64,000 nt of DNA from Alphaproteobacteria bacterium (GTDB taxonomy: Bacteria; Pseudomonadota; Alphaproteobacteria; Futianiales; Futianiaceae): positions 1,249,252 to 1,313,251 of the forward strand of contig OZ242016.1 of the NCBI GenBank assembly GCA_965204825.1. Direction: 5' to 3'. Below the pieces are notes generated by a model that was not told the DNA's origin, did not search any database, and saw only the letters and a list, made by a program, of their open reading frames with translations. The translations under genes were made by a program, and so were the position numbers. This document shows, one piece after another, positions 24,141 through 50,532 of this stretch (the stretch's first letter is position 1; each line of letters starts with the position of its first letter).

Positions 24141-24146
24141 TTATCC

Positions 24147-28288: not shown

Positions 28289-28290
28289 TC

Positions 28291-30549
28291 ATGGCGGAGA
28301 GTGCATCCACCAGGACCCCGGTTTCGCTGGACGATCTGCTGTCGGCAAATCGGAAACGGTTCGACAGCCTGTTCCAGCACCAGATATCCGGACCTGCGCC
28401 GCGCCGGGCACAAGCCGAACCTGAACCCCGCGACGACACCGATGAAGAGAGCACACTTTCATCCGTCCAAGCGATTCCGGCCGCCGGCGCCGGCGAGAAC
28501 ATCGTTGCCGAACTGAACAAACGTTTCACGATCACCTGGTCCAGCGAGGTTCTGGAACGCCGCGTCGAGAGCGACCGTGCGGTTGTCCTGTGCAAGCTTG
28601 ATGTCGGTGATGACTCCCGCACCGAGTCAGGATCAAGCCGGATCGGTGAGGACGGCGACCAGGACGCCGCCTTTGATCGCGCCCTCGCCCGGGCCCTGAA
28701 AAAATGCGCCGACCAGTTCGGTGAAAACGGCGCTGCCGCATCGATTGAAACCATGACCCCAATCGCACCGCTGAGCCCGGCGGCCGAGGCGCGGCGGAGC
28801 GCCTTGCGGGGAAGACTCCTGGATGTGGTCACCATGGACCGGGTCGAGACGGCATTGATGAATGCCCGGCGGGAGATGGAAACGGTTCTGCGGTATTCGG
28901 CCCTGTCACAAGGCCTGCGCGATCACCACGCCGAGCTTTCGATGATCATGGATTTCCAAGGCAATATGATTGCCGGGCGTTATGGCTCCTATGTGGCGCA
29001 CATGCTGAAGGCGCGGAAGCTGTCATTTGCGCCGGGCGATGTGCTGTTGCAAAGCGATCCCTATATCTCCGGCGGCGCGGTCAGCCATCCCAATGACTGG
29101 TTGGTCCTGATGCCGGTGTTCCATGGCTCTGATCTGGCCGGTTTCACGTCGATGTACGGCCATGTCGCCGATGCAGGCGGCCCGGCGGCCGGCAGCATGC
29201 CGGCCGATGCCGGGTCGGTCTTCGGCGAGGGGCTGCGCATTCCGCCGATCAAAATTCTACAATCCGGCGTCCTGAACGAAAGCGCGCTGCAACTGATCCT
29301 GAACAACAGCAGAACGCCGGAAACCAACCGTGCCGACTTGATGGCGCTGATCGCCGGGTGCCGGGCCGGGTCGGAGCAGGTCATCCGGCTGTGCGATCGG
29401 TTTGGACCGGAGCTCTATCACCGGACCTGTACTGCCCTGCTCGACCGCACCAATCAGGCCATGCGTCGGCTGATCGTCGATACGGTTCCCGAGGAACCAC
29501 AATCTTTCGAGGATCAGGTCGATGATGACGGCCGCGGCAATGGCCCCTTCAAGCTGAAACTGACAGTCTGGCGCGAGGGCGCTCATGCCTATTTCGACTG
29601 GACCGGCAGCTCGGCCCAGGCGCCGGGGCCGGTCAATTTCTATCTGCATGTGGGATTGGCCAAGATGTATGCCGGGCTGTATCTGACACGGGTCTTTGGT
29701 CCGGGCAGCGTTTGCAATGACGGTTTTTACGAGTTGATCCACGTGACCTTGCCCAAGGGTTCGCTGTTAAATCCTGAATTTCCCGCTGCGGTCGGTCGCC
29801 GCGATCATGCCCTGGCGCGGCAATTCGATGTGCTGGGAAATGCGCTGGGCCGGCACCGTCCCGAGGAATTGACTGCGGCCAGTTATGGCACCAGCCCGTC
29901 GTTCCGGTACGCCGGATCTGACTTTCAGATGACCGAAACCCTGTTCGGCGGCTTGCCGGGCCGGGACGGCGGTGATGGCATGGACGGGCATTCCCTGTGG
30001 CCGGACGCGCAAAGCGCGGCAACCGAACAGCTGGAAAGCAATTACCCCGTCATTGTTGAAAAATGCGCCTCTATCCCCGACACCGGCGGCGCCGGGCTGC
30101 ATCGCGGCGGCAACGGCGTAGAGAAGATCTACCGGATGCTGGAAGCGGGAGAAGTTTCGATCCACGATGACCGACATGCCTCGCGCCCCTGGGGTATCCG
30201 GGGCGGAAAGGCCGGCGAAGTGTCGGAAAAATGGATTGCACGCGCTGATGGAACCCGCGAGGCGCTGCCGGCGAAAATCGATGGCCTGGCGGTGCAGGCG
30301 GGCGACCGGATCGTTTTCCGGACCGCCGGCGGCGGAGGCTGCGGCGATCCGCTGGACCGCGATCCGGCGCTGGTGCGGCGCGACGTGGCACGCGGATTTC
30401 TGACGGTGGAACAAGCTGGCGCGGCCTATGGCGTCATCCTGTCGGGCGCGCGCCTGGAAATCGATCCGCGGGCGACCCGGGAATTGCGCGAGGGGGTGAA
30501 GCGCGAGCGGAAACCTTTGGAATTGTTTGACTATGGCGATCCGGTTTAG
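28291..30549 (+). CDS. hyuB: hydantoinase/oxoprolinase subunit B (HyuB-like) with a ~165-aa N-terminal extension, copy 1
   Basis: The core from ~residue 170 (MDRVETALMNARREMETVLRYSA...DPYISGGAVSHPNDWLVLMPVF...GLRIPPIKI) matches HyuB and the paralog at 44585. Residues 1-165 are acidic and low-complexity, plus a short globular-looking segment with no HyuB counterpart. Confidence 0.85.
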   Translation: MAESASTRTPVSLDDLLSANRKRFDSLFQHQISGPAPRRAQAEPEPRDDTDEESTLSSVQAIPAAGAGENIVAELNKRFTITWSSEVLERRVESDRAVVLCKLDVGDDSRTESGSSRIGEDGDQDAAFDRALARALKKCADQFGENGAAASIETMTPIAPLSPAAEARRSALRGRLLDVVTMDRVETALMNARREMETVLRYSALSQGLRDHHAELSMIMDFQGNMIAGRYGSYVAHMLKARKLSFAPGDVLLQSDPYISGGAVSHPNDWLVLMPVFHGSDLAGFTSMYGHVADAGGPAAGSMPADAGSVFGEGLRIPPIKILQSGVLNESALQLILNNSRTPETNRADLMALIAGCRAGSEQVIRLCDRFGPELYHRTCTALLDRTNQAMRRLIVDTVPEEPQSFEDQVDDDGRGNGPFKLKLTVWREGAHAYFDWTGSSAQAPGPVNFYLHVGLAKMYAGLYLTRVFGPGSVCNDGFYELIHVTLPKGSLLNPEFPAAVGRRDHALARQFDVLGNALGRHRPEELTAASYGTSPSFRYAGSDFQMTETLFGGLPGRDGGDGMDGHSLWPDAQSAATEQLESNYPVIVEKCASIPDTGGAGLHRGGNGVEKIYRMLEAGEVSIHDDRHASRPWGIRGGKAGEVSEKWIARADGTREALPAKIDGLAVQAGDRIVFRTAGGGGCGDPLDRDPALVRRDVARGFLTVEQAGAAYGVILSGARLEIDPRATRELREGVKRERKPLELFDYGDPV

Positions 30550-30592
30550 GGTCACAACAAAGAATGAAGATACAGGGACAGGTATAGGAACG

Positions 30593-36729: not shown

Positions 36730-38004
36730 CTAGGCGTTGAGGAACTCGGTCCAGCGCTTCACCAGATAATCGTTCTCGCTCATGATCGAATTCCACACGG
36801 CGATCTTCTTGAAGCGCTGCTCGTATGAGCCGCCATCGCGGATCGTGCCTTTTTCAACCAGGGGCGAACCGAACGGATCCGGCAATTCCTCGGCCGCCGG
36901 CTTGCCCTCATACCAGTAATCCCATTCGATCGGCGGCAGGGCTATCCTGGTGTTTGCCGGGGTCGACATGTAGTAACCCTGACGGGCCACAAACGCGCCG
37001 GCCCAGCCGCTGAGCCACCAGTTGATATACTCATAAGCCTGATCCAGCCTGGCGCCTTGGGTCCTGGCGGAAATCGCCAGCGCGCCGTGCCAGCCACGCA
37101 TGCCTTCCTTGGGCGAGGCATAGATGCACGGAACACCCTCGGCATTAACCGCGGTGACGGCCGGCGACCACATGGATTGCACGGCAACCTCGCCGCTGAC
37201 CATCAGGTTGACCGACTGGCCGAAGGTTTCCCAGAACGCCCGGAAATGACCGGCTTCTTTCTTCGTGATCAGGAAGTCGACCAGGAAGTCGATCTCCTCG
37301 CGGGTCATGTCACCCTTGTCGCCGAAGGTCTTCAGGCCCAGGGCCTCAACCCCCATGGCTGCATCCATCACACCGATTTGGGGCACGTTGATCAGGGCGA
37401 CCCTGCCCTGGAAATCCTCGCTGAACATTTCCGCCCAGCTTTCAATCTCGCGGCCCGTATCGTCCGGATTGTAGCCAAGCGAGTCCGCATTGTGCCAACC
37501 CGGCACCGCTGAGATATAGCGTGAGGGACCGTCCGTTGGCTTGCCGTTTTCATCGACCCACAGCTTGGTCACCGGGGCGTCGCCCTGGCCGACGGTCGAA
37601 CCTTCCGTCAGCTTGCCGGTCTTGGTCAGATTGGACACCTTGTCCCAATCCTTGATCCGCTGGGTATCGACCGGCTGGAATACACCGGCGGGCAGCATGA
37701 CGTCGAACATGTCGAAATAACATTCCGACACTTCATATTCGTTGTTCTGGTTCAGTGTCTTGCCGAACAGGGCGCCATATCCCAGCGCCTGGCCGCGAAC
37801 ACCGAAGCCCAGATCCCCGGCCGCCTTGCTTTGAATTTCGTTGATGATGCTGACGCCCAGGCCGATCGACCGGATCGGATCGGCGGCGTGAACGATATTG
37901 GGGAAACTGATTATTGAACTGGCGGCAGCGGCGCCTGCCGCTCCCCCTACGAACTTCCGGCGCGACACACCCTTGCCGGGGACCCTGAATTTGCCTTTAG
38001 CCAT
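36730..38004 (-). CDS. periplasmic substrate-binding protein (PotD/PotF-type family 1) with a Tat-like signal
   Basis: The N-terminal signal SRRKFVGGAAGAAAASS is twin-arginine-like, and the length and family fit PotD/PotF. It is first in a minus-strand operon with the two permeases. Confidence 0.85.
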   Translation of the reverse strand: MAKGKFRVPGKGVSRRKFVGGAAGAAAASSIISFPNIVHAADPIRSIGLGVSIINEIQSKAAGDLGFGVRGQALGYGALFGKTLNQNNEYEVSECYFDMFDVMLPAGVFQPVDTQRIKDWDKVSNLTKTGKLTEGSTVGQGDAPVTKLWVDENGKPTDGPSRYISAVPGWHNADSLGYNPDDTGREIESWAEMFSEDFQGRVALINVPQIGVMDAAMGVEALGLKTFGDKGDMTREEIDFLVDFLITKKEAGHFRAFWETFGQSVNLMVSGEVAVQSMWSPAVTAVNAEGVPCIYASPKEGMRGWHGALAISARTQGARLDQAYEYINWWLSGWAGAFVARQGYYMSTPANTRIALPPIEWDYWYEGKPAAEELPDPFGSPLVEKGTIRDGGSYEQRFKKIAVWNSIMSENDYLVKRWTEFLNA

Positions 38005-38180
38005 CTTTGTGCTCCCTCTAAGCGGATCGGAATTATTCCGATCTCCCTGCGAACGACCTCGGGCATCCGCAATTTTCGAGACAAGCGCCGCCGCTTTATG
38101 TTTTCCTGCGGCATGCAGCCGGTCAGTCGACAGCTTAGAGGCAAATTCGGAGACACCGCAAGGATTAGGGGAGGGCTCCT

Positions 38181-39632
38181 GTGAGCGTACTGATCAAGAA
38201 CGGCCGGATCGTCACGGCGAGCGATGATTATCACGCCGACATCTTCATCCATGATGAAACCGTCGACCTGATCGGCGCCGACCTGGAGATAAATACCGAT
38301 CTGGTCATCGACGCCGGCGGCAAGCTGGTCATTCCCGGCGGCATTGATCCGCACACTCATCTTGAACTGCCCTTTGGCGGTACCGTCACGTCGGACACGT
38401 TCGAGACCGGGACCCGCGCCGCCGCCTTTGGCGGCACCACCTGCATTATCGATTTCGCGGTCCAGTTCCAGGGCACTTCGGCCCTGGACGCGCTGGAAAC
38501 CTGGCATGAAAAGGCCGCCGGCAAGACCGCCATCGACTATGCCTTTCACATGATTCTGACCGATATGCCGGAAAGCCGGACCCGGGAAATGCGTGTCTTG
38601 GCCGAAGAAGGTGTCACCAGCTACAAGATGTTCATGGCCTATCCCGGCGCGATGCTGTCGGATGACGGCACGATCTTCCGGGCCATGCGCCAGGCCGGCG
38701 AGGACGGCACCCTGGTGTGCATGCATGCCGAGAACGGCATCGTCATGGACGAGTTGATCAAGATCGCGCTGTCGCAAGGTCACATCGAGCCCAAATATCA
38801 TGCCCTGACCCGTCCGACGCGGCTGGAGGCCGAAGGGGTTCACCGGGCCCTTGCAATTGCCGAGGTGGCAAAGTCCCCCTGCTATATCGTCCATCTCAGC
38901 AGCTATGATGCGCTTCAGGAATTGCGCATGGCACAGGCGCGCGGCGTCATGGCCCATGCTGAAACCTGTCCGCAATATCTCCTGCTTGATATCGCCAAAT
39001 ACGACGAACCCGGTTTCGACGGCGCGAAATATGTGCTGACCCCGCCCTTGCGCGAGAAATGGAACCAGGAGGAACTGTGGCGCGGCCTGCGCGGTAATGC
39101 CCTGAACGCCATATCGACCGATCATTGCCCGTTCTGCATGAAGGAACAGAAGGAACTGGGAAAAACCGACTTTTCAAAGATCCCCAATGGCGGCCCGGGC
39201 ATCGAAAACCGGATGAGCCTGATTTATCATTACGGGGTCAGCGGCGGCTATATAGATATCAACCGCTTTGTCGAGCTGACCTCGACCGGGCCGGCCAAAA
39301 TCTTCGGCCTGTTCCCCAGGAAGGGCACTATCGCGGTAGGCAGCGACGCCGACATCGTGATCTTCGACCCCGACCGGGAAGAGACCATCAGCTATTATAA
39401 CGGCCACACCCATCACATGAACATCGACTACAACGCCTATGAAGGGATGCTGGTCAAGGGCTTCACCGAAACGGTCTTCAGCCGCGGCCGGATGATCATC
39501 GACAAGGGTCAGTATCTGGGGCGGGCCGGTGACGGAAATTTCGTCAGGCGCGGGCCTTATGGCGGGCAATACCGGCCGGCGAAATCAGGCGATATCCCTT
39601 CTCGCGCGCCGGGATCACGCCATGGGATTTAG
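38181..39632 (+). CDS. dihydropyrimidinase / D-hydantoinase (cyclic amidohydrolase)
   Basis: VLIKNGRIVTASDDYHADIFI...GGIDPHTHLELPFGGT and the metal-binding His, Lys and Asp positions match the DHPase/D-hydantoinase family. Confidence 0.85.
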   Translation: MSVLIKNGRIVTASDDYHADIFIHDETVDLIGADLEINTDLVIDAGGKLVIPGGIDPHTHLELPFGGTVTSDTFETGTRAAAFGGTTCIIDFAVQFQGTSALDALETWHEKAAGKTAIDYAFHMILTDMPESRTREMRVLAEEGVTSYKMFMAYPGAMLSDDGTIFRAMRQAGEDGTLVCMHAENGIVMDELIKIALSQGHIEPKYHALTRPTRLEAEGVHRALAIAEVAKSPCYIVHLSSYDALQELRMAQARGVMAHAETCPQYLLLDIAKYDEPGFDGAKYVLTPPLREKWNQEELWRGLRGNALNAISTDHCPFCMKEQKELGKTDFSKIPNGGPGIENRMSLIYHYGVSGGYIDINRFVELTSTGPAKIFGLFPRKGTIAVGSDADIVIFDPDREETISYYNGHTHHMNIDYNAYEGMLVKGFTETVFSRGRMIIDKGQYLGRAGDGNFVRRGPYGGQYRPAKSGDIPSRAPGSRHGI

Positions 39633-40127
39633 GTCTGATCCGGCACCGACCGGGTCCGATGCCCCCACCGTCCGAATATTTTTCAGCAGCCAGAAAATGA
39701 TACAGAACAGGCCGGTCAGGATGAGCAGCGCAATCAGCGCGACCAGCCGTTTGCCGAAGGCGCCGTCCAGTGCGTAGCCCGGCTGCAGCAGGTGGACGGC
39801 CAGCATCTGCATGGCCTGCAGCGCCGCGCTGGCGCTGAGCAGGATGGCAGTGAAGGTCGACCCCCGGAGTGAACTGAGAACCATGGCCTCGACATTGCGC
39901 TGTTTGACGATGTGCAGGCGATAGGCCCGCCAGTGGAAGGCGCAAAAGCCGATAATGCCGATGATCACCCCGGCCCAGAAGATTGCATTGCTGTAGCTCA
40001 GGCCACGGACGACCAGATTGAACAAATCTTCGAACGGTTTATAGAAATACAGGAATATCAGGACGATGATGTAGACGATGAAACCCACGAGGGTCCAAAA
40101 CCACTGCCAGACGCTCATATCCCCCAC
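39615..40127 (-). CDS. small 4-TM membrane protein, unknown family (paralog of 25515-26040)
   Basis: The shared motifs are LIFLYFYKPFE...NAIFW...HW...LQAMQMLAVHL. Its 3' end overlaps the dihydropyrimidinase 3' end in convergent orientation. Confidence 0.55.
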   Translation of the reverse strand: MGDMSVWQWFWTLVGFIVYIIVLIFLYFYKPFEDLFNLVVRGLSYSNAIFWAGVIIGIIGFCAFHWRAYRLHIVKQRNVEAMVLSSLRGSTFTAILLSASAALQAMQMLAVHLLQPGYALDGAFGKRLVALIALLILTGLFCIIFWLLKNIRTVGASDPVGAGSDLNPMA

Positions 40128-40200
40128 CCGCTTCTCCGAACCGATGTCCGGTGTTGATCCGCAGCTTCGATACCTGAAACCCTATCCCAGCCATTGTTGG

Positions 40201-41277
40201 TCAAGCAACCGCCTCGGGCCGCGCGGCAATCAGCAGGATCACGTAAAGAATCAGGAAAATAATGTCCTTCGCGGTTCCGGCGCCCTGGCTGTCATTGTCG
40301 CGATTGGCGATCAGAACGATGATCTCCAGCACGAAGAAGATCAGGGCCAGGAAGAAGAACGGCCAGATCGTCCCCCACCAGGAAATCTCTGGCGCCAGTT
40401 CAACCTCCTGAACCGTTTGCCAGATCAACAGCAGAATGGGCAGCGCCAGCAAATAGAGATGGCCGATCAGGAATCGCAACCGTGTGACCTTGCGATCGAT
40501 GATCCATAGCACCAGCAGAAACGCCAGCACATTGAGGAAGTCCCAGAACATCGCGGCATAGGCGTCGCCGGCGCCTGAATTAAGCAGATTGAGATATCCG
40601 ATCAGATAAAGGAACACGATGGCGTCGCAGAACAGCCATTCGCGCAGCGTCTCGTCCGGCAGCTTGATATTCCAGGCGCGGCTGGCCTTGTCGAACAGCA
40701 TCACCAGTGCCACGATCAGCCCGGCCGGATAGATCAGATACAGCATCATCGAATACTGTTGTTCATGAGGCACATAGGACCAGTTCAGAATCAGATAGGC
40801 GATGCCGAGGCCGAAGAGGCCAAGCAATCGGACCGCGGACGGGCTTTCATGGCTGGCGACTCGCTCGGATACCGGTTCCGGCACGACGGTATCTGTCGCC
40901 ATTAGACCAATGGGCGACGCCGCCGAAGCCGGGCCCTGGCGGTTCCGCGCAACGCGCCAGAACATGGTCAGCAGGAAGATGATCAACCCGGCGCCGCCGA
41001 TAATCAACATAATGACAAAGAATGTCAGGCCGCGCGTATCGGCGCTCCAATCGATCTCGGTCCAGGGCGGGAACTGCCACAGAAACAAGACGGCAATGAT
41101 GCCAACCGCGGCGGTGGCCAGCAGGAATTCATACCATTGCGGCTGATAGCCGGCGCCCTGCCCGCCCGGTGTGGTGCGCAAGGCGTGGCGGGAGACCAGG
41201 AAAATCAGAAACGCGATGACACCGACAATGCCGATGGCTGCCATGACTTCCAGGAAGGCGACAGACCTGCTGTCCAC
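40201..41277 (-). CDS. polytopic (~9 TM) membrane protein of unknown family
   Basis: It is a 358-aa hydrophobic ORF located between the small membrane protein and the divergent isochorismatase-family gene. I recognise no motif. Confidence 0.5.
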   Translation of the reverse strand: MDSRSVAFLEVMAAIGIVGVIAFLIFLVSRHALRTTPGGQGAGYQPQWYEFLLATAAVGIIAVLFLWQFPPWTEIDWSADTRGLTFFVIMLIIGGAGLIIFLLTMFWRVARNRQGPASAASPIGLMATDTVVPEPVSERVASHESPSAVRLLGLFGLGIAYLILNWSYVPHEQQYSMMLYLIYPAGLIVALVMLFDKASRAWNIKLPDETLREWLFCDAIVFLYLIGYLNLLNSGAGDAYAAMFWDFLNVLAFLLVLWIIDRKVTRLRFLIGHLYLLALPILLLIWQTVQEVELAPEISWWGTIWPFFFLALIFFVLEIIVLIANRDNDSQGAGTAKDIIFLILYVILLIAARPEAVA

Positions 41278-41455
41278 GATTGTCCCTCAAGCTAACAACA
41301 GAAATTCTGCCGCGCCGCCCGCTGCGCACCGCCAAGGTTAGCATCGGTTTTTCGCACTGTCGATTGTCTGATCCGCCTTGCCAAGCCGGGAATGGACCGT
41401 GACAATCCTCGCTCTGGGCCTATGATATCGTCTGGGGAAAACGAGGGGAGAGGCC

Positions 41456-42103
41456 ATGAGCGATCCATCCGACAGCATCTACAAGGACCGCAGTTATGGC
41501 GCCGGCGAGATCGGCTATGGCGATATGCCGGGGATCGCGGTGGTGGATTTCCAGAATGCCTTTACCGATCCGCAATATGCCCTGGGCGGGGCACCGATGA
41601 TCGACCGGGCGGTGAACAATAGCGCCCGCCTGCTGGACGTGGCCCGCCGGTGCAAGGTTCCGGTCGCGACCTGCTATACGGCCTACACCTCCAAGGCGGA
41701 CATGCCCTATTGGAAGGTATCCGCGGTGCAGGAACAGCTGATCCACGGCAGTCACGCGACGGAACTGGACCCACGGATCTATGATCCCGACTATGATGTG
41801 CGTCTGAGCAAGACCGGTGCGTCGATCTTCTTTCAGACCCCGATCGTACCGTTCATGGTGAAACAGAAGGTGGACACGCTGATCGTCGTCGGCTGTGTCA
41901 CCTCGGGCTGTGTTCGCGCTTCGATCATCGACAGTTTTCAGAACGGGTTCCGCACCATCGTGCCCGAGGACGGGGTCGGCGATCAGGACGAGCGGCCGCA
42001 CAATGACAATCTGCGCGATGTCGACCGGCGCTATTGCGACATCACCGATGTCGATAGCGTAATCGAATGGATCGAGGCCTGGCGCGGGCGCAACGAACAC
42101 TGA
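41456..42103 (+). CDS. isochorismatase-family cysteine hydrolase (N-carbamoylsarcosine-amidase-like), copy 2
   Basis: IAVVDFQNAFTDP...VPVATCYTAY...LIVVGCVTSGCVRASIIDSFQNGFRTIVPEDGVGD shows the same catalytic Cys context as copy 1. Confidence 0.8.
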   Translation: MSDPSDSIYKDRSYGAGEIGYGDMPGIAVVDFQNAFTDPQYALGGAPMIDRAVNNSARLLDVARRCKVPVATCYTAYTSKADMPYWKVSAVQEQLIHGSHATELDPRIYDPDYDVRLSKTGASIFFQTPIVPFMVKQKVDTLIVVGCVTSGCVRASIIDSFQNGFRTIVPEDGVGDQDERPHNDNLRDVDRRYCDITDVDSVIEWIEAWRGRNEH

Positions 42104-42139
42104 TCGGACGGCATGGCCGCCGGAGGATGAAGACAGAAC

Positions 42140-44563
42140 ATGGCAAAAGATCGTGACACCATCACCAGTTGGTTCGACAACCAGTTGGACGATCTCAAGG
42201 GCGAATTCGACCGCCTGGGCGGCGACGCCGGGCAACCCAATGGGCGCCCGCCGGTCGGCCGGCCATCGGTCGAGAGTCGATCCGGCGCCAATGGCGGATC
42301 GGCAAACATCGCGCCGCCGCCGTCATCCAAACCGCCTGTCATTTCGCCGCCACCGAAGATCGCGCCGCCCGAGGTGGCCCGTGCACGCAATGCCCCGGCA
42401 CCCGCTCCCTCAACGCCGTCCTACACCCCGCCGCCGTCGGTACCTGCCGCGGCAAGGCCTGCATCGCCCAAGCCGCGGGAAGCACCGCGCCGGCGGGCAA
42501 CATCCGGCGGAGGCTATATGCTGGGGGTCGATGTGGGCGGCACCTTCACCGATCTGCTGCTGATCGAGGAAAGCAGTGGGCTGACATTTACCGCCAAGGT
42601 GCCCTCCACGCCGCAGGATTCCTCTGTCGGAGTCCTGAACGGGATTGAGCGCATCTGCGGTATTGCCAGGATCAAGCCGACGGCCATCAACCAGGTGATG
42701 CACGGCACGACAGTGGCCACCAACACAGTGCTGACCAATTCGGGCGCGCGGGTCGGTCTGGTCACGACCAGGGGGTACAAGCAGACACTGCAGATCGCCC
42801 GATCCTATGTGCCCGGCGGCCTTGGCGGCTGGGTGATCTTCAACAAGACCGACCCGCTGGCGCCGCTGGAGCTGACCATCGAAGCCGACGAGCGGATGGA
42901 CGCCAAGGGCGAGATCGTCGATCCGCTGGATGAGGCGAAAATGAAGGCCGACCTTGCCAAACTGGCCGGCGAAGGGATCGAGGCGCTGACCGTCTCGCTG
43001 ATGAACGCCTATACCAACGGCATCCACGAACAGAAGATCCGCTCGATCGCCGAACAGGTTCTACCTGGCGTGCCGGTGTCGATCTCGTCTGAAATCGTGC
43101 CGGAGATGTACGAGTATGAGCGCACCGAAACCACAGTGGTGAACTCCTATATCAGGCCAGTGGTAGGCAAATATATCGAGAACCTGCGGAACGAACTGGA
43201 CCGGCGGATGAGTAGGGTGCAACTGCATATCCTGCGGTCTGACGGCGGATTATCCTCGGACGAGGCAGCCAAGGAGCTGCCCGTAAACCTGCTGATGAGC
43301 GGTCCGGCCGGCGGCGTCTCCGGCGCCATCTGGATGGCGAAACAGGCCGGCTTCAAGGATCTGCTGACCTTCGACATGGGGGGCACGTCAACCGACGTGG
43401 CCCTGATCCAGGACGGCGTGGCCCAAACCCGGCGCGAAACCCGCATTGCCGACGTTACCGTGCGCGCACCCTCGGTCGATGTCCGTACGGTCGGCGCCGG
43501 CGGCGGTTCAATCGCCTATGTGCCCGAACTGACCAAAGCCTTGCGCGTCGGCCCGCAAAGCGCCGGCGCGGAGCCTGGCCCCGCGGCCTATGGCAAGGGC
43601 GGCATGGAACCGACAGTGACCGACGCCAATGTGGTGCTGGGGTATCTGCCCTCGACCTCCAGGCTGGGTGGGGACATGCAACTTGACCGCGCAGCCTCGG
43701 AAAAGGTGGTCAAGACAGTGGCCGATGCCATGGGCCTGCAAATGAAAGAGGCCGCGGAAGGCATCATCAATATCGTCAACGAGAACATGTTCGGTGCCCT
43801 GCGCCTTGTTTCCGTCGAGCGGGGGTTCGATCCGCGCGACTTCGCCCTGATCGGTTTTGGCGGCGCCGGTCCCTTGCATGCCAATGCTCTGGGCAAGCTG
43901 ATGAATTCCTGGCCGGTGATCATTCCGCCCGGGCCCGGCGTTCTGTGCGCTTATGGCGACGCCACGACCCGGGTGCGGAACGAGGCATCGCGCACATTCG
44001 TGCGCCGCTTCGATGATACCAGCGACGGTGAAGTGCTCGGCATCCTGCAGGACCTGGCCGCTTCGGCCGCCCAGGCCCTGAACGACGAGGGCGTGCCGCG
44101 CGGAGAACAGACAACCCAGTATCAGATCGACCTGCGCTATGCCGGCCAGGGCATGCGTCTGAGCGTGAACATGAGCCCGGAAGAGTTTGCCAGCCAAGGC
44201 CTGAAAGAACTGGGCCACCGGTTCGACGACCTGCACGAGCAACTGTTTACCTTCCGCCTGGATACACCGCATGAGCTCTACAATTTGCGTGCCGTGGTCC
44301 AGGGGCGTGAGAGCCTGGCGACCGCCGGCGCCCTGCCGACCGGCACAGGCGACGCATCGGGCGCGGTGCACGAGAAATCGACCATCTTCTTCGAGAGTCG
44401 CGATCATCCTGCCCGGATCTATGACCGCGCTTTGCTGAAAGCGGGGGACCGAATCCCCGGTCCGGCCATCGTTACCGAGATGGATTCAACGTCACTGATC
44501 CTGCCTGGCCACACCGGCGAGGTGGACCCGGTCGGCAATATCCTCATCCGCCCGGCGCAATAA
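42140..44563 (+). CDS. hyuA: hydantoinase/oxoprolinase subunit A (HyuA-like) with a 125-aa proline-rich N-terminal extension, copy 2
   Basis: The core starts at YMLGVDVGGTFTDLLLIEE (~42515). The ORF is open from the ATG at 42140, which has a GGAGGA RBS, through a segment encoding APPPSSKPPVISPPPKIAPPEV...STPSYTPPPSVPAAARPASPKPREAPRRR. Confidence 0.85.
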   Translation: MAKDRDTITSWFDNQLDDLKGEFDRLGGDAGQPNGRPPVGRPSVESRSGANGGSANIAPPPSSKPPVISPPPKIAPPEVARARNAPAPAPSTPSYTPPPSVPAAARPASPKPREAPRRRATSGGGYMLGVDVGGTFTDLLLIEESSGLTFTAKVPSTPQDSSVGVLNGIERICGIARIKPTAINQVMHGTTVATNTVLTNSGARVGLVTTRGYKQTLQIARSYVPGGLGGWVIFNKTDPLAPLELTIEADERMDAKGEIVDPLDEAKMKADLAKLAGEGIEALTVSLMNAYTNGIHEQKIRSIAEQVLPGVPVSISSEIVPEMYEYERTETTVVNSYIRPVVGKYIENLRNELDRRMSRVQLHILRSDGGLSSDEAAKELPVNLLMSGPAGGVSGAIWMAKQAGFKDLLTFDMGGTSTDVALIQDGVAQTRRETRIADVTVRAPSVDVRTVGAGGGSIAYVPELTKALRVGPQSAGAEPGPAAYGKGGMEPTVTDANVVLGYLPSTSRLGGDMQLDRAASEKVVKTVADAMGLQMKEAAEGIINIVNENMFGALRLVSVERGFDPRDFALIGFGGAGPLHANALGKLMNSWPVIIPPGPGVLCAYGDATTRVRNEASRTFVRRFDDTSDGEVLGILQDLAASAAQALNDEGVPRGEQTTQYQIDLRYAGQGMRLSVNMSPEEFASQGLKELGHRFDDLHEQLFTFRLDTPHELYNLRAVVQGRESLATAGALPTGTGDASGAVHEKSTIFFESRDHPARIYDRALLKAGDRIPGPAIVTEMDSTSLILPGHTGEVDPVGNILIRPAQ

Positions 44564-44584
44564 CGCCAGCACAAGGCTTTTCAG

Positions 44585-46480
44585 ATGCCCGCAACAATCA
44601 TCCAGTCCAATACCTGCCCGTTCAACCGGGTCGATATCGACCCGATCACGCTGGACATCATCGAGAACGCGCTGAAAAACGCACGCACCGAAATGGATGC
44701 AGTCCTGTTCCGCACCGCCATGTCACCCGGCATCCGCGAGCAGCACGATGCCTTTCCGATGATCGCCAATCCGGAAGGCAAGATGGTGGTCGGCCAGTTC
44801 GGTTCGTTCTTTTCCGGCTTCAAGGAGGGCTATGACGGCGATATCGAAGAAGGCGATATCTTCCTGACCAATGATCCATATGGATGCAACGGCGCGGTCA
44901 GCCACCTCAATGACTGGCTGACCCTGATGCCGGTCTATATCGACGGTCGGATTGTCGCCTGGGCGGCGATGTTCGGGCATATGACCGATATCGGCGGCAA
45001 GGTGCCTGGTAGTCTGCCGACCGATGCGGCCCAGATCTTCGAGGAAGGTATCCAGATCCCGCCGGTCAAGATCTATCGTCAGGGCAAGCTGAACGAGGAG
45101 ATCCTCAACCTGATTTTGCGCAATTGTCGCCTGCCGGAATGGAACAAATCCGATTTCAACGCCATTGTTGCTGCTCTGCGCATGGCCGAACGGCGGGTGG
45201 TGGAAATGGCTGACCGGTTCGGTGTCGATCAACTGGTCGGCGCCATGCAGGAGATGCTGGACCGCAACAAGATGGCCATGGGCGAGATTCTGAAAATCGT
45301 CGTGCCCGAGACCAAGCAGTATTTCGAGGACTATATCGACGATGACGGCATGGGCATGGGCCCCTACAAGATCGCCTGCCATCTGTGGCGCGAGGGTGAT
45401 GGCGTGGTGTTTGATTTCGAGGGCACCGACCCCCAGTCGATCAGCTCGGTGAATTTCCTTCTGAACGAGGAAATGTTCAAAATGTTCCTCGGCTCGTTCT
45501 TCATCAACATTTTCGATCCGCAGATCCTGTTCAATGACGGTTTCTACGATCTGGTCGAGGTGAGGATTCCGCGCGGCTCGATCCTGAAACCGATCCGGCC
45601 GGCGGCGCTGTCATCACGCACCCATATGCTGGCGCGGATCTTCGATATTATGAGCGGCCTCCTGGGCCAGGGATCGCCCGATGCACTGTGTGCCGCCGGA
45701 TTTTCCGACAGTCCACACTTCATGTATTCGGGCTATAACAAGCACGGCGAATGGTACCAGCTCTATCAAATCGGTTTCGGCGGTGTACCCGGCCGGCCGG
45801 CCGGCGACGGTCCCGACGGGCATTCCCTGTGGCCGGCCTTTACCAATGTGCCGAACGAGTTTCTCGAGGCGTATTTTCCGCTGCGCATAGTCAGATACGA
45901 GACCATCGCCGACAGCGGCGGGCCCGGCCAGCACCGCGGTGGCAACGGCCTGTCGATGGGTTATCAGTTCCTGGAACCCGGCGAAATTTCGATCCACGAT
46001 GACCGTTGGCTGACCCACCCCTGGGGCGTTAATGGCGGCCTGCCGGGCCAGCGCAGCGACAAGCGGATGGTGCGCGCCGACGGCACGTCGGAATGGATGG
46101 AATCCAAGTGCGACCGGATCAAGGTCGATACCGGAGACATACTCTATTTCAATACCTGGGGCGGTGGTGGCTGGGGCGACCCCCTGGAGCGCGATGCCGA
46201 ACAGGTGTCCCTGGACGCACGGCGCGGCCTGATCACTGCGGAAGGGGCGAAACGCTATGGCGTCGCCCTGAACGACGACCTGTCGGTCGACCGGCGCGCG
46301 ACCGATGAATTGCGCAAACGCATGGCATCCGAACGTGGCCCGGTCGAGTTGTTCGATCGGGGTGGCACCGTCGAGGAACTGAAAGCCCGCTGCAAGGCCG
46401 ACACCCATTTCGATCCGCCCCGCTCGCCGGTCTTCCAGAAATGGATGGGGCGGCAGGATCTACCGACCGCGGCGGAATGA
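44585..46480 (+). CDS. hyuB: hydantoinase/oxoprolinase subunit B (HyuB-like), copy 2
   Basis: DIIENALKNARTEMDAVLFRTAMSP...DPYGCNGAVSHLNDWLTLMPVY...GIQIPPVKI is the canonical HyuB pattern. It starts 19 nt after hyuA2. Confidence 0.9.
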   Translation: MPATIIQSNTCPFNRVDIDPITLDIIENALKNARTEMDAVLFRTAMSPGIREQHDAFPMIANPEGKMVVGQFGSFFSGFKEGYDGDIEEGDIFLTNDPYGCNGAVSHLNDWLTLMPVYIDGRIVAWAAMFGHMTDIGGKVPGSLPTDAAQIFEEGIQIPPVKIYRQGKLNEEILNLILRNCRLPEWNKSDFNAIVAALRMAERRVVEMADRFGVDQLVGAMQEMLDRNKMAMGEILKIVVPETKQYFEDYIDDDGMGMGPYKIACHLWREGDGVVFDFEGTDPQSISSVNFLLNEEMFKMFLGSFFINIFDPQILFNDGFYDLVEVRIPRGSILKPIRPAALSSRTHMLARIFDIMSGLLGQGSPDALCAAGFSDSPHFMYSGYNKHGEWYQLYQIGFGGVPGRPAGDGPDGHSLWPAFTNVPNEFLEAYFPLRIVRYETIADSGGPGQHRGGNGLSMGYQFLEPGEISIHDDRWLTHPWGVNGGLPGQRSDKRMVRADGTSEWMESKCDRIKVDTGDILYFNTWGGGGWGDPLERDAEQVSLDARRGLITAEGAKRYGVALNDDLSVDRRATDELRKRMASERGPVELFDRGGTVEELKARCKADTHFDPPRSPVFQKWMGRQDLPTAAE

Positions 46481-46484
46481 CGGG

Positions 46485-47180
46485 TTACCCCTTCGCCGCC
46501 ATGATTGCTTTCAAATCGATGTCGAAGGTGTTCTGAACGATCTCGGCGATCCGGTCGTAGACACAGCCGACCCGGATGGTTTCGAAATTCTCCAGATCGA
46601 CGATGGTGCTGCCGAGCCCGCGGTCATTGTGATAGGGTACCAAGCCGTAATCGATCTGGATATCGGCGATATCGCGCACCTGGTCCTGGACATCCTGCAA
46701 CACGAATTTGCTCCCCGTCAGCGATACGTTCGCCGACGAGCCGGACACGCCATAGGCGTTTTCCCGCGCCAGACGGGCAATCTCGTCATGCAGCGGCCCG
46801 GCGTTCAGCAGCACGTCCATGGTGCCGGCCTTGGTCGCGTTCTTGAAGGTGAAGGGAGGCAGTCCCCGTGCCAACGGATGTTCGGCGCGCAAGGGGCCAA
46901 CCACGGAAAACGGCAGATCGTGATCCTGGGTGATGACACGCACCATCTCGCGTGCCTGTTTGGTCACGTCGAGTAATTCGTTGAACAGCTGCCAGTCGCC
47001 GAAGTTGCCGCACGGTTTTTCAAACGAACGTTCCTTGGCCTTGTAGATTCGCCGGATTGCCTCGTCCTCGTGCCCGACAATGGCGTAACCGACGCTGACC
47101 GGGAAGATCGCCACGCCGCCATTGCGCACGGTTTCAAATATCCGCGCCGCGTCTTCCTTGATAGGCTGTCCCTCAAACAT
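46485..47180 (-). CDS. YrdC/Sua5-domain (L-threonylcarbamoyladenylate-synthase fold) protein, paralog A
   Basis: VAIFPVSVGYAIVG (compare YPTDTVYGLG), KAKERSFEKP (KxRPxxKP), GVSGSSANVS (STSANxSG) and GSTIVDL (PSTIVD) match YrdC/Sua5 landmarks. The start is at MFEGQ, with an RBS GGAAGG. Confidence 0.65.
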   Translation of the reverse strand: MFEGQPIKEDAARIFETVRNGGVAIFPVSVGYAIVGHEDEAIRRIYKAKERSFEKPCGNFGDWQLFNELLDVTKQAREMVRVITQDHDLPFSVVGPLRAEHPLARGLPPFTFKNATKAGTMDVLLNAGPLHDEIARLARENAYGVSGSSANVSLTGSKFVLQDVQDQVRDIADIQIDYGLVPYHNDRGLGSTIVDLENFETIRVGCVYDRIAEIVQNTFDIDLKAIMAAKG

Positions 47181-47335
47181 CCTTCCCCGCTCCCCTTTCT
47201 CGATTACCCGTTGGGACGATAGAGGCAGGCGCGAAATTGACCAAGCAGGGATGTGGTAGGTGCATGAGCGTAGAAGAATTGGCCTCCTCTTCAAAATCAT
47301 GCTGAACTGTCGGCCGTCTTGGAGGGAGCGACGGA

Positions 47336-48085
47336 GTGGGCAGACCGGATATTGCGGCGGACGCGCAACGGGCCTTTGATGTACTGTGGTCGGGCGGCAC
47401 CGCGATCCTGCCGATGGATGTGGGATATTCCCTGATCGGCGGGTCGGCGGACGCGCTGTCGGCGATATTCCGGACCAAGGGACGCGCGCCGTCAAAACTG
47501 AATGCCATGCTGGGCGACATGACGCTGCACCGGGAGATCCACCGTCTGGACACACGGGGGCGGGAAATCGCCGAGGCCATCACGCTCGACTATGACCTGC
47601 CGCTCGGCGCCATCGCCCCGGCGGATCTGGATCATCCGATCCTACGCAAAATGGCGCCGGGCGCCCTGGCCCGCAGCAGCAAGACCGGCACCGTACTGAT
47701 GCTGCTCAATGCCGGCCAATTCCATGGTGAGATCTGCCGGCTGAGCCGCGAACACATCCATCCCCTGTTCGGCTCATCGGCCAACCGGTCGCTGCAGGGT
47801 ACGAAATTCCGGGTTGAGGACATGGAACCGGAGATCACCGCCATCGCCGATATCATCATCGACCACGGCTTGCGGAAGTATCATCTCTATGGGGCGTCCT
47901 CGACGCTGCTGGATCTGCAAACCCTGGAAGTTGTCCGTTTCGGATCCTGCTTTGAGTTGATCCGCGACATTCTGAACCGGCACTTCAACGTCGCCCTGCC
48001 GGACCCGCCCGCGATCGATGCCGGTGAGATCACCGACAAAGGCTACATCAAATCAGCGCGCGGTTTTGGAAAACCGGTTGGCTGA
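47336..48085 (+). CDS. YrdC/Sua5-domain protein, paralog B (divergent from paralog A)
   Basis: TAILPMDVGYSLIGG, KGRAPSKL, LFGSSANRSLQG and GASSTLLDL give the same YrdC landmarks. It is ~30% identical to paralog A by eye. Confidence 0.65.
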   Translation: MGRPDIAADAQRAFDVLWSGGTAILPMDVGYSLIGGSADALSAIFRTKGRAPSKLNAMLGDMTLHREIHRLDTRGREIAEAITLDYDLPLGAIAPADLDHPILRKMAPGALARSSKTGTVLMLLNAGQFHGEICRLSREHIHPLFGSSANRSLQGTKFRVEDMEPEITAIADIIIDHGLRKYHLYGASSTLLDLQTLEVVRFGSCFELIRDILNRHFNVALPDPPAIDAGEITDKGYIKSARGFGKPVG

Positions 48086-48153
48086 CCTCTCCAAGCTTCA
48101 GGGTGGTGATCCCGGCGACTATGTCGCGATACTGGACTAGAGTCTGTTGACAA

Positions 48154-48540
48154 TCACCGGGCAGCGTTGAGCATTGCGCAGAGGTGCCAGTTGGCCGCGT
48201 AGCTGGTATCTGTTTTGTCGTATCGCGTTGCCATCCCCCTGAATTCTTTGATCTTTGCGAAGTAGTTTTCAATCAGGTGACGCCACTTGTACATGTGAGT
48301 ATCGTAGTCTCGTTGCACTTTCCGGTTCGATTTGGGTGGAATAACCGCAGTTGCGCCGCGCTCATCAAGGTCTTGCAGGAGCCAATCGGCGTCGAAGGCC
48401 TTGTCGGCCAGCAACGCTGCGAAGGAGACATCGTGGATCAGGGGGGCAACCCCCTTCATGTCGTGCGCTTGCCCCGGCAGAAGCAGAAAGCGGAACAAGT
48501 TGCCGAGCGCATCGACCAGGGCAACGATTTTGGTCGTCAG
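48154..48540 (-). CDS. IS5/IS427-group transposase OrfB (DDE part), probably expressed by a programmed -1 frameshift from OrfA
   Basis: ...GQAHDMKGVAPLI...ADKAFDADWL...GATAVIPPKSNRK...RHLIENYFAKIKEFRGMATRYDKT is the IS5 DDE C-terminal signature. Its frame overlaps the OrfA 3' end. Confidence 0.7.
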   Translation of the reverse strand: MTTKIVALVDALGNLFRFLLLPGQAHDMKGVAPLIHDVSFAALLADKAFDADWLLQDLDERGATAVIPPKSNRKVQRDYDTHMYKWRHLIENYFAKIKEFRGMATRYDKTDTSYAANWHLCAMLNAAR

Positions 48541-48923
48541 CCCGCCGCGAGAGCGTCCGATGGCTTGATTCCGTGTCCCCCTTTTGCGCCCGAAGCCTTC
48601 TGATGGGCCTGGACAATCGTTCCGTCGATGAGAGCATATTCAAGGTCTGGCTCGTCGCTTATGGCGTTGAAAAGTCTCTCGAACACACCGGCCTTTGCCC
48701 ATCGACGAAATCGTTTGAAAACCGAATTCCAGTTGCCGAAATCCTGGGGCAGGTCACGCCAGGGAGACCCTGTTCGCACACGCCAAAGTACGGCCTCCAT
48801 GAACCGACGGTTATCCCGACCGGTTGCTCCCGGGTCCCCGGCCTTACCGGGTAACAGGGGCGCAATCTTCGCCCAGAGTTCATCTGAAATCACCAAACGA
48901 TCTTCGTCCATCCAAACCTCCAT
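48537..48923 (-). CDS. IS5/IS427-group transposase OrfA
   Basis: MEVWMDEDRLVISDELWAKIAPLLPGK...RFMEAVLWRVRTGSPWRDLP is the typical IS5-family InsH-like N-terminal HTH. Confidence 0.75.
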   Translation of the reverse strand: MEVWMDEDRLVISDELWAKIAPLLPGKAGDPGATGRDNRRFMEAVLWRVRTGSPWRDLPQDFGNWNSVFKRFRRWAKAGVFERLFNAISDEPDLEYALIDGTIVQAHQKASGAKGGHGIKPSDALAAG

Positions 48924-49083
48924 TTTCGAAGCTTGAATAACAGTTCAGGCCAAATCGCAACCCCGAATGTCAACAGGCCCTAGAATTACCGGCATTACTG
49001 ATCCCATCCGCGATCATGGGCTTGTTGATATTTTGCGGGCCAACCGATACCAACGCGGCGCAAGAACAGACGGGGCATGACGC

Positions 49084-50376
49084 ATGTCGGATCGGTTGAG
49101 GGACAGGGCCTTTACGGCGCTGTCGGCATGGGGGTTTTACGGCTGGTGGATACTGGGTGTGGCGGCGCTGGGCATCTTTGCTTCGGGCCCCGGCCAGTCC
49201 CACACGTTCAGTGTCTTTGTCGGCCCGATATCGCAGGATCTCGGCGTCACCCCCACCGCCATCGCCTCGGCCTATGCCTTTGCCACCATGGCCGCCGCCT
49301 TCGGCCTGCCGTTCATGGGCCGCCTGACGGACCGGTACGGGCCACGCACCATGTTGCTGATTGTAACGGTCCTGCTCGGATTTGCCTGCATGGCGTTCGG
49401 GGCAGCGGCAAACCTGATCATGCTGGGGCTCGGCTTTGCCGCCCTGCGCTTCCTCGGCCAGGGATCGCTGATGCTGAACTGCGCCAATCTGGTGTCCCAG
49501 TGGTTTGACCGCAAGCGCGGCTTCGCCATGAGCCTGATGGCGATGGGGTTTGCGGTCTCGATCGCGATCCATCCGCCTCTCGGCCAGATGCTGATTGAGG
49601 CCCATGGCTGGCGCTCGGCCTGGGTGATTCTGGGCCTGGTGACCTGGGCCGTCCTGTTGCCGCCGGTCTGGCTGCTCATTCACAACAAGCCGGAGGAAAT
49701 GGGGTTGGAGCCCGACGGCGGCGACGCTGCGACCGGCATCCAGCTGGGTCCAAAACCGGTTGGCGCCGGCATCGGCCTGACCCTTGATGAAGCCCTGCGC
49801 ACCCCGGCTTTCCACATCGTCGTCGGCGGGATGTTTTCCATGTCGATGCTGGTCACAGTGCTGCATTTCTATCAGGTGACGATCTTTACCGCCCAAGGCC
49901 TGGACCCAGGATTCGCCGCCCGAGTCTTTCCGATTTCCGCGGTTGTCATGGTGGCCTTCATGCCCTTGGTCGGGCGCCTCCTGGACAGTATCCGCACCCG
50001 CTTTGCCTTTGCCATGGCGCTGTGTGTCCAGTCCGCTTCTCTCCTGACCGCGACCCTGGTGACCGACCTGACCACGGCCAGCATCTACGCCGCGACCTTC
50101 GGCCTCAACAACGCCTGCGTCATGACCTTTTTCGGCTATGTCTTTCCGCGCTATTTCGGCCGCAAACATCTCGGCTCGATCCAGGGCACCGGCCAGACCG
50201 TTATCGTCATCGGCGCCTCCCTCGGCCCACCCCTGATCGGCTACACCGCCGAGTTCACCGGCGGCTACGGCCTGCCTTTGCGCACCGCAGCCCTCCTGCC
50301 CCTCGGCTTCGCGGTCGTTGCGGCGCTGTTTCTCAGGACGCCCGCGCCGATGGACACACATGTGGAGCGAGATTGA
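49084..50376 (+). CDS. MFS transporter
   Basis: It has 12 predicted TM helices and MFS motifs (GRLTDRYGPR in loop 2-3). Confidence 0.8.
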   Translation: MSDRLRDRAFTALSAWGFYGWWILGVAALGIFASGPGQSHTFSVFVGPISQDLGVTPTAIASAYAFATMAAAFGLPFMGRLTDRYGPRTMLLIVTVLLGFACMAFGAAANLIMLGLGFAALRFLGQGSLMLNCANLVSQWFDRKRGFAMSLMAMGFAVSIAIHPPLGQMLIEAHGWRSAWVILGLVTWAVLLPPVWLLIHNKPEEMGLEPDGGDAATGIQLGPKPVGAGIGLTLDEALRTPAFHIVVGGMFSMSMLVTVLHFYQVTIFTAQGLDPGFAARVFPISAVVMVAFMPLVGRLLDSIRTRFAFAMALCVQSASLLTATLVTDLTTASIYAATFGLNNACVMTFFGYVFPRYFGRKHLGSIQGTGQTVIVIGASLGPPLIGYTAEFTGGYGLPLRTAALLPLGFAVVAALFLRTPAPMDTHVERD

Positions 50377-50532
50377 GTATAGCGAAACGGTTCGACACGT
50401 TATCGGGGTGCGACATAAAAGGGAGATTGCTCCAATCCTCGCACAAACTCATCGAGTCGATTTATGCTAAATAGCCCTGTGACCATCTCTTATGCCAAGA
50501 CAACCTTGCCGGTTGTGTGCTAAAATTCAGCC

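Follow-up and report, generated by a model that had tools for sequence, protein, structure and literature searches.

The understood uses of YrdC/Sua5-fold proteins (Sua5_yciO_yrdC, PF01300) are synthesis of threonylcarbamoyl-AMP (TC-AMP) for N6-threonylcarbamoyladenosine (t6A) and formation of carbamoyl-AMP in HypF and in TobZ-type enzymes, whilst YciO is a long-standing orphan of the family. The ATP site of TsaC/Sua5 consists of a KxR/SxN tetrad (PMC10321239), and threonine is contacted by Thr33 and Thr35 of a PTET motif, His67, Arg121, Ser181 and Arg195 in Pa-Sua5 numbering (PMC6004061). Arg195 and the backbone of Ser143 also bind bicarbonate, and Ser181 and Arg195 have been linked to the binding of threonine, bicarbonate and carbamoyl (PMC10321239, PMC6004061). 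Two stand-alone genes of this fold, termed yrdC1 and yrdC2, lie beside hydantoinase genes in the window analysed here (i.e. the whole 64-kb stretch of alphaproteobacterial contig OZ242016.1). Alignments and profile scores place YrdC1 and YrdC2 in a PF01300 clade that is small, distinct and uncharacterised, and indicate that they are not the t6A enzyme TsaC. The best overall explanation, to which a probability of roughly 55% was assigned, is that both are adenylate-forming enzymes acting on a non-threonine intermediate of a ring-opening/deamidation pathway. Conserved residues and gene context suggest that the clade probably has a new role in breaking down nitrogen-containing rings. The literature searched contained no paper joining YrdC-fold proteins with hydantoinases, in agreement with an earlier, preliminary description of the locus, and none combining PrpD with hydantoinase and isochorismatase.

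Fold and active site of YrdC1 and YrdC2

Both proteins were assigned to PF01300 by Pfam, with scores of 43.9 bits for YrdC1 and 33.0 bits for YrdC2 against a gathering threshold of 25.1. This was the sole significant Pfam match in either protein, and both are single-domain. AlphaFold2 models had predicted local distance difference test (pLDDT) values of 95.5 and 90.9, respectively. The C-terminal ~22 residues of YrdC2 (228-249) had a pLDDT of <50, are predicted to be disordered and are not conserved; homologs of YrdC2 span ~90% of the query. When the models were compared to the PDB using Foldseek, the top matches were Thermotoga maritima TsaC2, the Sua5 proteins of S. tokodaii and P. abyssi, SMU.1377c (3L7V) and E. 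coli YrdC, YciO and HypF, with a probability of 1.00 to TsaC2, Sua5, YrdC, YciO and HypF for both models. TsaC2, Sua5 and 3l7v led for YrdC1, and Sua5 and TsaC2 for YrdC2. The preliminary description had proposed a pair of YrdC-fold paralogs of ~30% identity. The fold was borne out by the Pfam profile and by the AlphaFold2/Foldseek comparison, and the paralogy by alignment of the two proteins, at a higher identity of 39% over 221 amino acids (E 6e-51).

Conservation was examined in 104 dereplicated relatives, in which K49, R51, K55, N126, S148, S149, N151, S191 and R203 were invariant. The KxR/SxN tetrad is kept as K49-x-R51 and S148-S149-A150-N151, invariant in both paralog families and all 104 relatives, and the same holds for S191 and R203, the equivalents of Sua5 Ser181 and Arg195. 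Two independent alignments set PVSV of YrdC1 and PMDV of YrdC2 against the PTET motif, leaving Val or Met at the positions of Thr33 and Thr35; FPVSVGY aligned onto FPTETVYG in two independent phmmer alignments. The segment carrying Arg121 (VRMPAH in Sua5) reads LLNAGPLH or LLNAGQFH, without Arg or Lys and with the invariant Asn126, and the equivalent of His67 is ambiguous and not conserved in the clade. As aligned, the ATP and bicarbonate/carbamoyl half of the site appears to be strictly selected and the threonine half rebuilt.

These features bear on whether the genes are simply the genome's housekeeping TsaC for t6A synthesis, in duplicate. The Pfam family and the KxR/SxN tetrad are shared with TsaC, and homologs carry the Joint Genome Institute (JGI) auto-annotation 'TsaC/SUA5/YrdC'. 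Against this, the NCBIfam TsaC equivalog model TIGR00057 scored 40.5 bits for YrdC1 and 24.6 bits for YrdC2, far under its cutoff of 123.2, and the equivalents of Thr33/Thr35 and Arg121 are absent. The clade is tiny and patchily distributed, its copy number varies, its genes sit inside catabolic islands, and one metagenome-assembled genome (MAG) has two yrdC1-type copies on separate contigs (L003 and L005). BLAST and phmmer searches of the window with an approximate E. coli TsaC query found neither gene at E<1. No second, canonical tsaC was found within the 64-kb window, where a profile of the clade retrieved just the yrdC1 and yrdC2 open reading frames (ORFs). Three features thus set YrdC1 and YrdC2 apart from TsaC: their equivalog score is too low, the contacts to threonine are missing and their gene context is not a housekeeping one. 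The earlier view that they are not bona fide TsaC is upheld by the scores and the replaced threonine-contacting residues, and a housekeeping role is barely credible.

Distribution and gene neighbourhoods of the clade

A profile of the clade searched against 1.84 billion entries retrieved 1575 representatives at E<=1e-3, a number that fell to 385 at <=1e-10 and to 112 at <=1e-30. Carriers are alpha- and betaproteobacterial and mostly consist of MAGs and metagenome contigs; orthologs of yrdC1 with 66-87% identity were found in MAGs of both classes. Clustering divided a yrdC1 type from a yrdC2 type and yielded several further types, which are mostly PrpD-linked. Amongst dereplicated anchors, a second YrdC-like gene was nearby for 16/17 yrdC2-type and 14/22 yrdC1-type genes. 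As the yrdC2 type is almost never found without a second copy, yrdC1 would be the core gene and yrdC2 a partner paralog, with a heteromer being probable. Fusions were considered as a possible Rosetta stone for function and only two kinds were seen, neither of them decisive: a 446-amino-acid protein in which a YrdC-like domain is joined to one of the Haem_oxygenase_2/TENA-PQQC family (P0336), and a PrpD_N fragment joined to a YrdC-like domain (P0275), which may be a merged gene call.

Gene neighbourhoods were sampled from 18 loci of species-representative genomes, 80 metagenome loci and seven gene-called contexts, with neighbour families mapped by tblastn. Neighbours were counted within 10 kb of 62 YrdC-like anchor genes, dereplicated at 95% identity and having at least 8 kb of flank. 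HyuA or HyuB was present for 40/62 anchors (65%) and an isochorismatase-type or signature amidase for 46/62 (74%), as compared to 13/62 (21%) for an ABC ATPase control and 10/62 (16%) for a short-chain dehydrogenase/reductase control, these percentages being indicative only. MmgE/PrpD was found for 23/62 anchors (37%), a family III coenzyme A (CoA)-transferase for 21/62 (34%) and a 3-hydroxy-3-methylglutaryl-CoA (HMG-CoA)-lyase-like gene for 17/62 (27%). For the yrdC1 type, HyuAB was present in 16/22 and an amidase in 18/22, and PrpD, HMG-CoA-lyase-like (HMGL) and CoA-transferase genes were rare (3-4/22). In 13 of the 18 genome loci, hyuB (or hyuB-hyuA-isochorismatase) adjoins yrdC1. Gene calls were also consulted for six relatives, and HyuA or HyuB lay within 8 kb in 6/6. 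Five of them are distant from their paralog in the window, with 50-60% identity to YrdC1, and the sixth (P0216) is a yrdC2-type homolog of ~70% identity.

These catabolic clusters centre on HyuA/HyuB, an enzyme for ATP-dependent ring opening, and on a hydrolase of amide or ureido groups (isochorismatase-type or signature amidase), and the order and orientation of their genes varied. The arrangement is convergent in the window, L003 and L004, divergent in L021 and L024, and takes the form of same-strand operons elsewhere, i.e. hyuA-hyuB-isochorismatase-PrpD-yrdC-isochorismatase (L023, L060) and hyuA-hyuB-yrdC-isochorismatase (L089, L092, L099). The linked HyuB proteins span 29% to 92% identity to HyuB2 of the window, and the association therefore exceeds inherited synteny. 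The link between YrdC-like and hyuAB genes that had been suggested from this one locus is borne out across clades and arrangements.

Immediately next to yrdC1-like genes, the commonest co-directional neighbour was MmgE/PrpD, with 16 cases within 300 bp. At the same distance, HMGL-like genes occurred 12 times on the opposite and three times on the same strand, and CoA_transf_3 genes twice. The broader family adjoins MmgE/PrpD, HMG-CoA-lyase-like and CoA-transferase genes as often as anything carbamoyl-specific. One locus (L025) has genes for a mesaconyl-CoA-hydratase-like protein and an acyl-CoA dehydrogenase downstream of yrdC2. In the cultured organism Variovorax paradoxus VAI-C (L108; CP063167.1, 8045-18341), a tandem YrdC-like pair lies in a same-strand operon with genes for an esterase, two tripartite tricarboxylate transporter (TTT) binding proteins, an isocitrate lyase/phosphoenolpyruvate (ICL/PEP)-mutase protein, a fatty-acid-CoA ligase, a LeuCD-like dehydratase and a CapA-family protein. 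These contexts, the recurrent HMGL-like and CoA-transferase genes and the PrpD_N-YrdC fusion or merged call favour a role in which the pair adenylates a plain carboxylate in CoA-dependent catabolism of di- or tricarboxylates (C5-dicarboxylate-type), HyuAB and the amidases being mere frequent co-residents of the islands. However, in the clade of the window PrpD, HMGL and CoA-transferase genes are the rare neighbours and HyuAB and amidase genes the frequent ones, and the conserved Ser/Arg pair corresponds to the bicarbonate/carbamoyl site of Sua5. A plain-carboxylate role is accordingly considered rather unlikely.

In several HyuAB-poor loci (L009/L028-L030, L026, L050 and L061), the YrdC-like gene lies directly beside a flavin monooxygenase (FMO) gene of FMO- or Lys-Orn-oxygenase-like type; in L026 a tripartite ATP-independent periplasmic (TRAP) transporter precedes the YrdC-like gene and a TauD-family dioxygenase follows it. 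These loci look like a second, oxidative context of the family. A universal extra partner was also sought amongst unannotated neighbours (i.e. ORFs of 468, 484 and 506 amino acids and the FMO-like genes) and rejected, as sharing was limited to near-identical contigs.

The gene pair and its island in the window

The outer ends of the pair were placed at 46485 and 48085 by the preliminary description, and ORFs were found at both. The minus-strand ORF of yrdC1 extends mechanically to a GTG at 47555 (listed as 46485-47555). Its true start is, on sequence grounds, assigned to the ATG at 47180, giving a protein that begins MFEGQ, since homologs have 229-233 amino acids, the gene was independently called with this start on a metagenome contig of identical sequence, and a GGAG-type ribosome-binding site lies upstream. 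yrdC2 starts with GTG, with GGAGGGAG upstream. The coordinates of the pair and its neighbours are listed in Table 1.

Table 1. Coordinates of the yrdC1/yrdC2 pair and of neighbouring features in the window
Feature	Position	Strand	Description
yrdC1	46485..47180	-	Stand-alone YrdC/Sua5-fold protein, 231 aa; clade 8 in clustering; ORF
yrdC2	47336..48085	+	Paralogous stand-alone YrdC/Sua5-fold protein, 249 aa; clade 1; ORF
Divergent intergenic spacer	47181..47335	.	155 bp separating the two start codons
hyuB2	44585..46480	+	Hydantoinase_B subunit, ATP-dependent hydantoinase/lactamase-type; PF02538, 496 bits
hyuA2	42140..44563	+	Hydantoinase_A subunit, presumed ATP-binding; PF05378, PF01968, PF19278
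Isochorismatase-family cysteine hydrolase	41456..42103	+	PF00857, 98 bits; first gene of isochorismatase-hyuA-hyuB run
Multi-pass membrane protein, 358 aa	40201..41277	-	No Pfam/NCBIfam match
Second multi-pass membrane protein	39615..40127	-	No Pfam/NCBIfam match
Dihydropyrimidinase/D-hydantoinase, ATP-independent	38181..39632	+	TIGR02033, 591.5 bits (cutoff 393)
IS5-family insertion sequence, outside the system	48137..48983	-	PF13340 and PF01609; two ORFs; 19-nt inverted repeats

The two genes had been described as back-to-back and as lying 4 nt downstream of hyuB2. They are arranged head-to-head (i.e. divergently) across the spacer, in which both promoters presumably lie. The 4 nt separate the stop codons of two convergent genes, hyuB2 on the plus and yrdC1 on the minus strand; there is no shared transcript, and the gap is too short for a terminator. 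As yrdC1 and hyuB2 are convergent, yrdC1 lies outside the hyuAB transcript. An Rfam search of 38000-50500 gave no match at E<=0.1, and a regulatory RNA or riboswitch in or near the spacer was rejected.

Upstream of the convergent junction, the isochorismatase-family, hyuA2 and hyuB2 genes form a co-directional three-gene run. The best solved relatives of the isochorismatase-family hydrolase are N-carbamoylsarcosine amidohydrolases, 26st (1.4e-35) and 1nba (2e-29), followed by 4l07/4l08, which are deposited as 'Hydrolase, isochorismatase family' only and of which we take 4l07 to be maleamate amidohydrolase. Its translation shows Asp (VVDFQ), Lys (LSKTG) and Cys (TSGCV), presumably the catalytic triad of the family. 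Adjacent Hydantoinase_A and Hydantoinase_B profile matches were obtained at 306 and 496 bits. The best solved relatives of HyuB2 are N-methylhydantoinase 7hk5 (9.5e-69) and then caprolactamase 6yra. HyuA2 scored 525 bits against a CapA-like NCBIfam model with a cutoff of 1000, and HyuA2 and HyuB2 fell under all curated equivalog cutoffs, including those for caprolactamase and acetophenone carboxylase.

Orthologs of the dihydropyrimidinase are syntenic with the cluster in six related loci (L006, L007, L012, L014, L036 and L038). The 358-amino-acid membrane protein is syntenic with isochorismatase-hyuAB in 13 related loci, at 41-61% identity, and is possibly a transporter for the cluster's substrate. 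HyuA2 has an N-terminal extension of ~125 amino acids before Hydant_A_N (42140-42520), with a short helical-looking start followed by Pro/Ala/Ser-rich low complexity; the extra length is retained in the orthologs of L021 and L025. A second pair, hyuA1/hyuB1, lies at 26234-30549. HyuB1 carries a 177-amino-acid extension preceding Hydantoinase_B (28291-28820), and a 960-amino-acid protein with SPFH/Band 7 as its sole domain match (30527-33409, plus strand), an unusual neighbour for a hydantoinase, starts within the end of hyuB1. Two polysaccharide-deacetylase-family (PF01522) genes are present next to a CobW-type GTPase (23103-24140 and 24474-25508). Genes of this family, which includes the metal-independent allantoinase PuuE, a hydantoin-ring hydrolase, recur near YrdC-like genes, both in L024 (8782-9696), directly downstream of a yrdC2-type gene, and in the Variovorax locus (24122-24654).

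The island is closed by an IS5-family insertion sequence (IS) that starts 51 nt past the yrdC2 stop codon. Its imperfect 19-nt inverted repeats lie at 48137-48155 and 48965-48983, and its minus-strand ORFs match DUF4096 (48537-48923) and DDE_Tnp_1 (48154-48498), a two-ORF layout that, judged from the sequence, could result from a frameshift. Interruption of yrdC2 by the element was considered and rejected, the inverted repeat beginning after the stop codon and the gene being intact. The element stands between the island and genes for a major facilitator superfamily (MFS) transporter and a NadA-matching protein, and identical metagenome contigs break exactly at it.

Candidate reactions and comparison with known systems

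If the pair acts on an intermediate of ring opening or deamidation, YrdC1 and YrdC2 would retain TsaC-type chemistry, in which a carbamate or carboxylate oxygen attacks ATP at its alpha-phosphate and pyrophosphate is released. The substrate would be an intermediate other than threonine. Opening of opine lactams is a further activity proposed for HyuAB-type proteins (PMC6733357), and the ring substrate therefore need not be hydantoin. Two versions of the reaction were weighed. Tentative preference is given to the bicarbonate-dependent formation of a carbamoyl-adenylate, with the amidase step supplying the amine or carbamate on which it is built, because the bicarbonate/carbamoyl residues of Sua5 are invariant and because cysteine hydrolases of the N-carbamoylsarcosine-amidase type release their amine via an N-carboxy intermediate. 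The main alternative, possible though held with less conviction, is an acyl-adenylate of an amic or dicarboxylic acid, which the PrpD, lyase and CoA-transferase neighbours support.

Several observations weigh against an adenylating role in such a pathway. It is not obvious where an adenylation that costs ATP would fit into a catabolic route. The residue mapping comes from sequence alignment. The loci were retrieved by query similarity and derive mostly from MAG and metagenome contigs, which biases the counts, and 35% of the informative loci lack HyuA/B within 10 kb. HyuAB is absent within 12 kb of the Variovorax pair. Conversely, a HyuAB-amidase module without any YrdC-like or PrpD gene occurs on a conjugative plasmid of Acidiphilium multivorum (L110; NZ_CP041720.1, 3601-10530), comprising a GntR regulator and a run of HMG-CoA lyase / CoA transferase, hyuA, hyuB (71% to hyuB2) and isochorismatase genes. 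Plasmid records with HyuB homologs numbered 949 and those with a clade YrdC one; megablast of the cluster against plasmids gave only a 10% partial match. In the window, the convergence of yrdC1 with hyuB2 means that the two may be co-regulated at most, and the spacer contained no match to the sigma-70 consensus. As the HyuAB-amidase module also occurs without any YrdC-like gene, the YrdC-like proteins are accessory to this module and are not a general HyuAB subunit. The Acidiphilium module may represent the pathway in its minimal form and may be well suited, as a cultured model, to identification of the substrate.

The preliminary description had seen in the locus a hint of ATP-dependent carbamoyl activation or transfer coupled to the N-carbamoyl products of the hydantoinases. 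In such a model, the carbamoyl group of these products would be the target of the pair, through HypF/TobZ-like carbamoyl-AMP chemistry on ureido acids. The window offers some encouragement for this model, in that the adjacent hydrolase is closest to N-carbamoylsarcosine amidohydrolase, HyuB2 is closest to N-methylhydantoinase, a dihydropyrimidinase is syntenic, the bicarbonate/carbamoyl-site residues are invariant and the YrdC-like domains of HypF and TobZ are amongst the structural matches. However, the nucleophile of YrdC-type enzymes is a carbamate or carboxylate, and a ureido group is without a carboxylate oxygen that could be adenylated. No Kae1-like transferase is fused or adjacent, TobZ is a weak match (E 8.6e-4 for YrdC1, >0.05 for YrdC2), and many relatives lie in clusters dominated by PrpD, HMGL and CoA-transferase genes or in HyuAB-free operons. 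Activation of ureido acids was consequently judged unlikely.

A bolder proposal, which is considered distinctly improbable, is that the stand-alone YrdC proteins hand an adenylate over, in a system of a new kind, to the cysteine hydrolase next door or to HyuA, which we take to be a protein of the acetate and sugar kinase/Hsc70/actin (ASKHA) fold. A carbamoyl- or acyl-adenylate made by YrdC1/YrdC2 would then be consumed by the HyuAB or amidase partner, and the cluster would perform CO2/ATP-dependent carbamoyl or carboxyl transfer, or else ring formation and interconversion, on an N-heterocycle and not plain hydrolysis. By analogy, such a system would echo the recurrent pairing of YrdC and ASKHA proteins in TsaC-TsaD, HypF and TobZ. 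If true, the YrdC fold would gain a fourth functional class, and the hydantoinase/oxoprolinase family an additional activity.

Whichever reaction is involved, solving the clade would give a function to a family mis-annotated as 'TsaC/SUA5/YrdC', could expose a carbamoyl- or acyl-adenylate step that is new to the catabolism of N-heterocycles and would help to define the substrate of the widespread HyuAB-amidase-CoA-transferase-lyase module.

Amongst characterised systems, TsaC/Sua5 shares with YrdC1 and YrdC2 the fold (Foldseek E 6e-13 to 1e-10, TM about 0.65-0.7), the KxR/SxN tetrad and the equivalents of Ser181 and Arg195. In contrast, identity is only 19-26%, well under the TIGR00057 cutoff, Val or Met replaces Thr33/Thr35, an Arg121 equivalent and a SUA5 domain are lacking, and the clade has invariants of its own (DLP...P...HP, LLNAG..H, K158 and D177) and a catabolic, not a housekeeping, gene context. 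Of the structures that match YrdC1 over the full length, SMU.1377c of Streptococcus mutans (3L7V) is the best (TMq 0.75, TMt 0.69), and for YrdC2 it is the top sequence match among solved structures; a longer insert between KxR and SSAN and the VGY and SSAN motifs are common to this protein and the clade. It differs in being a Firmicute protein of ~20% identity with Thr at the first PTE position, and nothing functional was found for it in the literature searched.

HypF and the TobZ/GdmN-type O-carbamoyltransferases share the fold and provide the nearest precedent for a carbamoyl-adenylate without threonine. Their structural scores are weaker (E about 1e-9 to 1e-5 for HypF, 1e-3 or worse for TobZ), and their YrdC-like domains are fused to a Kae1-like ASKHA transferase that receives the adenylate, whereas YrdC1 and YrdC2 are stand-alone. 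The window and the gene-called neighbourhoods examined contained no Kae1/TsaD-like gene; HyuA, presumably the only ASKHA-type neighbour, is taken not to be a Kae1 family member.

YciO of E. coli (1K7J/1KK9) resembles YrdC1 and YrdC2 in that it is a TsaC paralog of the YrdC fold, stands alone and has a conserved active site, and its physiological substrate is unknown (PMC12506659). Its hallmarks are that yciO co-localises with rnm (RNase AM) and that the protein surface bears a conserved patch of positive charge (PMC12506659). Its presence amongst the structural matches and its TsaC-like active site leave room for YrdC1 and YrdC2 being YciO-like and having a role related to RNA, or being binding proteins that do not catalyse a reaction. 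Nevertheless, the phmmer match to YciO covers only ~35 N-terminal residues (E 0.16-0.2), no rnm-type neighbour occurs in the window or the gene-called contexts listed, all neighbours are small-molecule catabolic enzymes, and the catalytic residues are absolutely invariant, as would be expected of an enzyme, making either role very improbable. Within a well-known fold, the clade forms a distinct and uncharacterised functional branch whose genomic signature is reproducible, and so represents a further PF01300 orphan, one that comes with a sharply defined and testable gene context.

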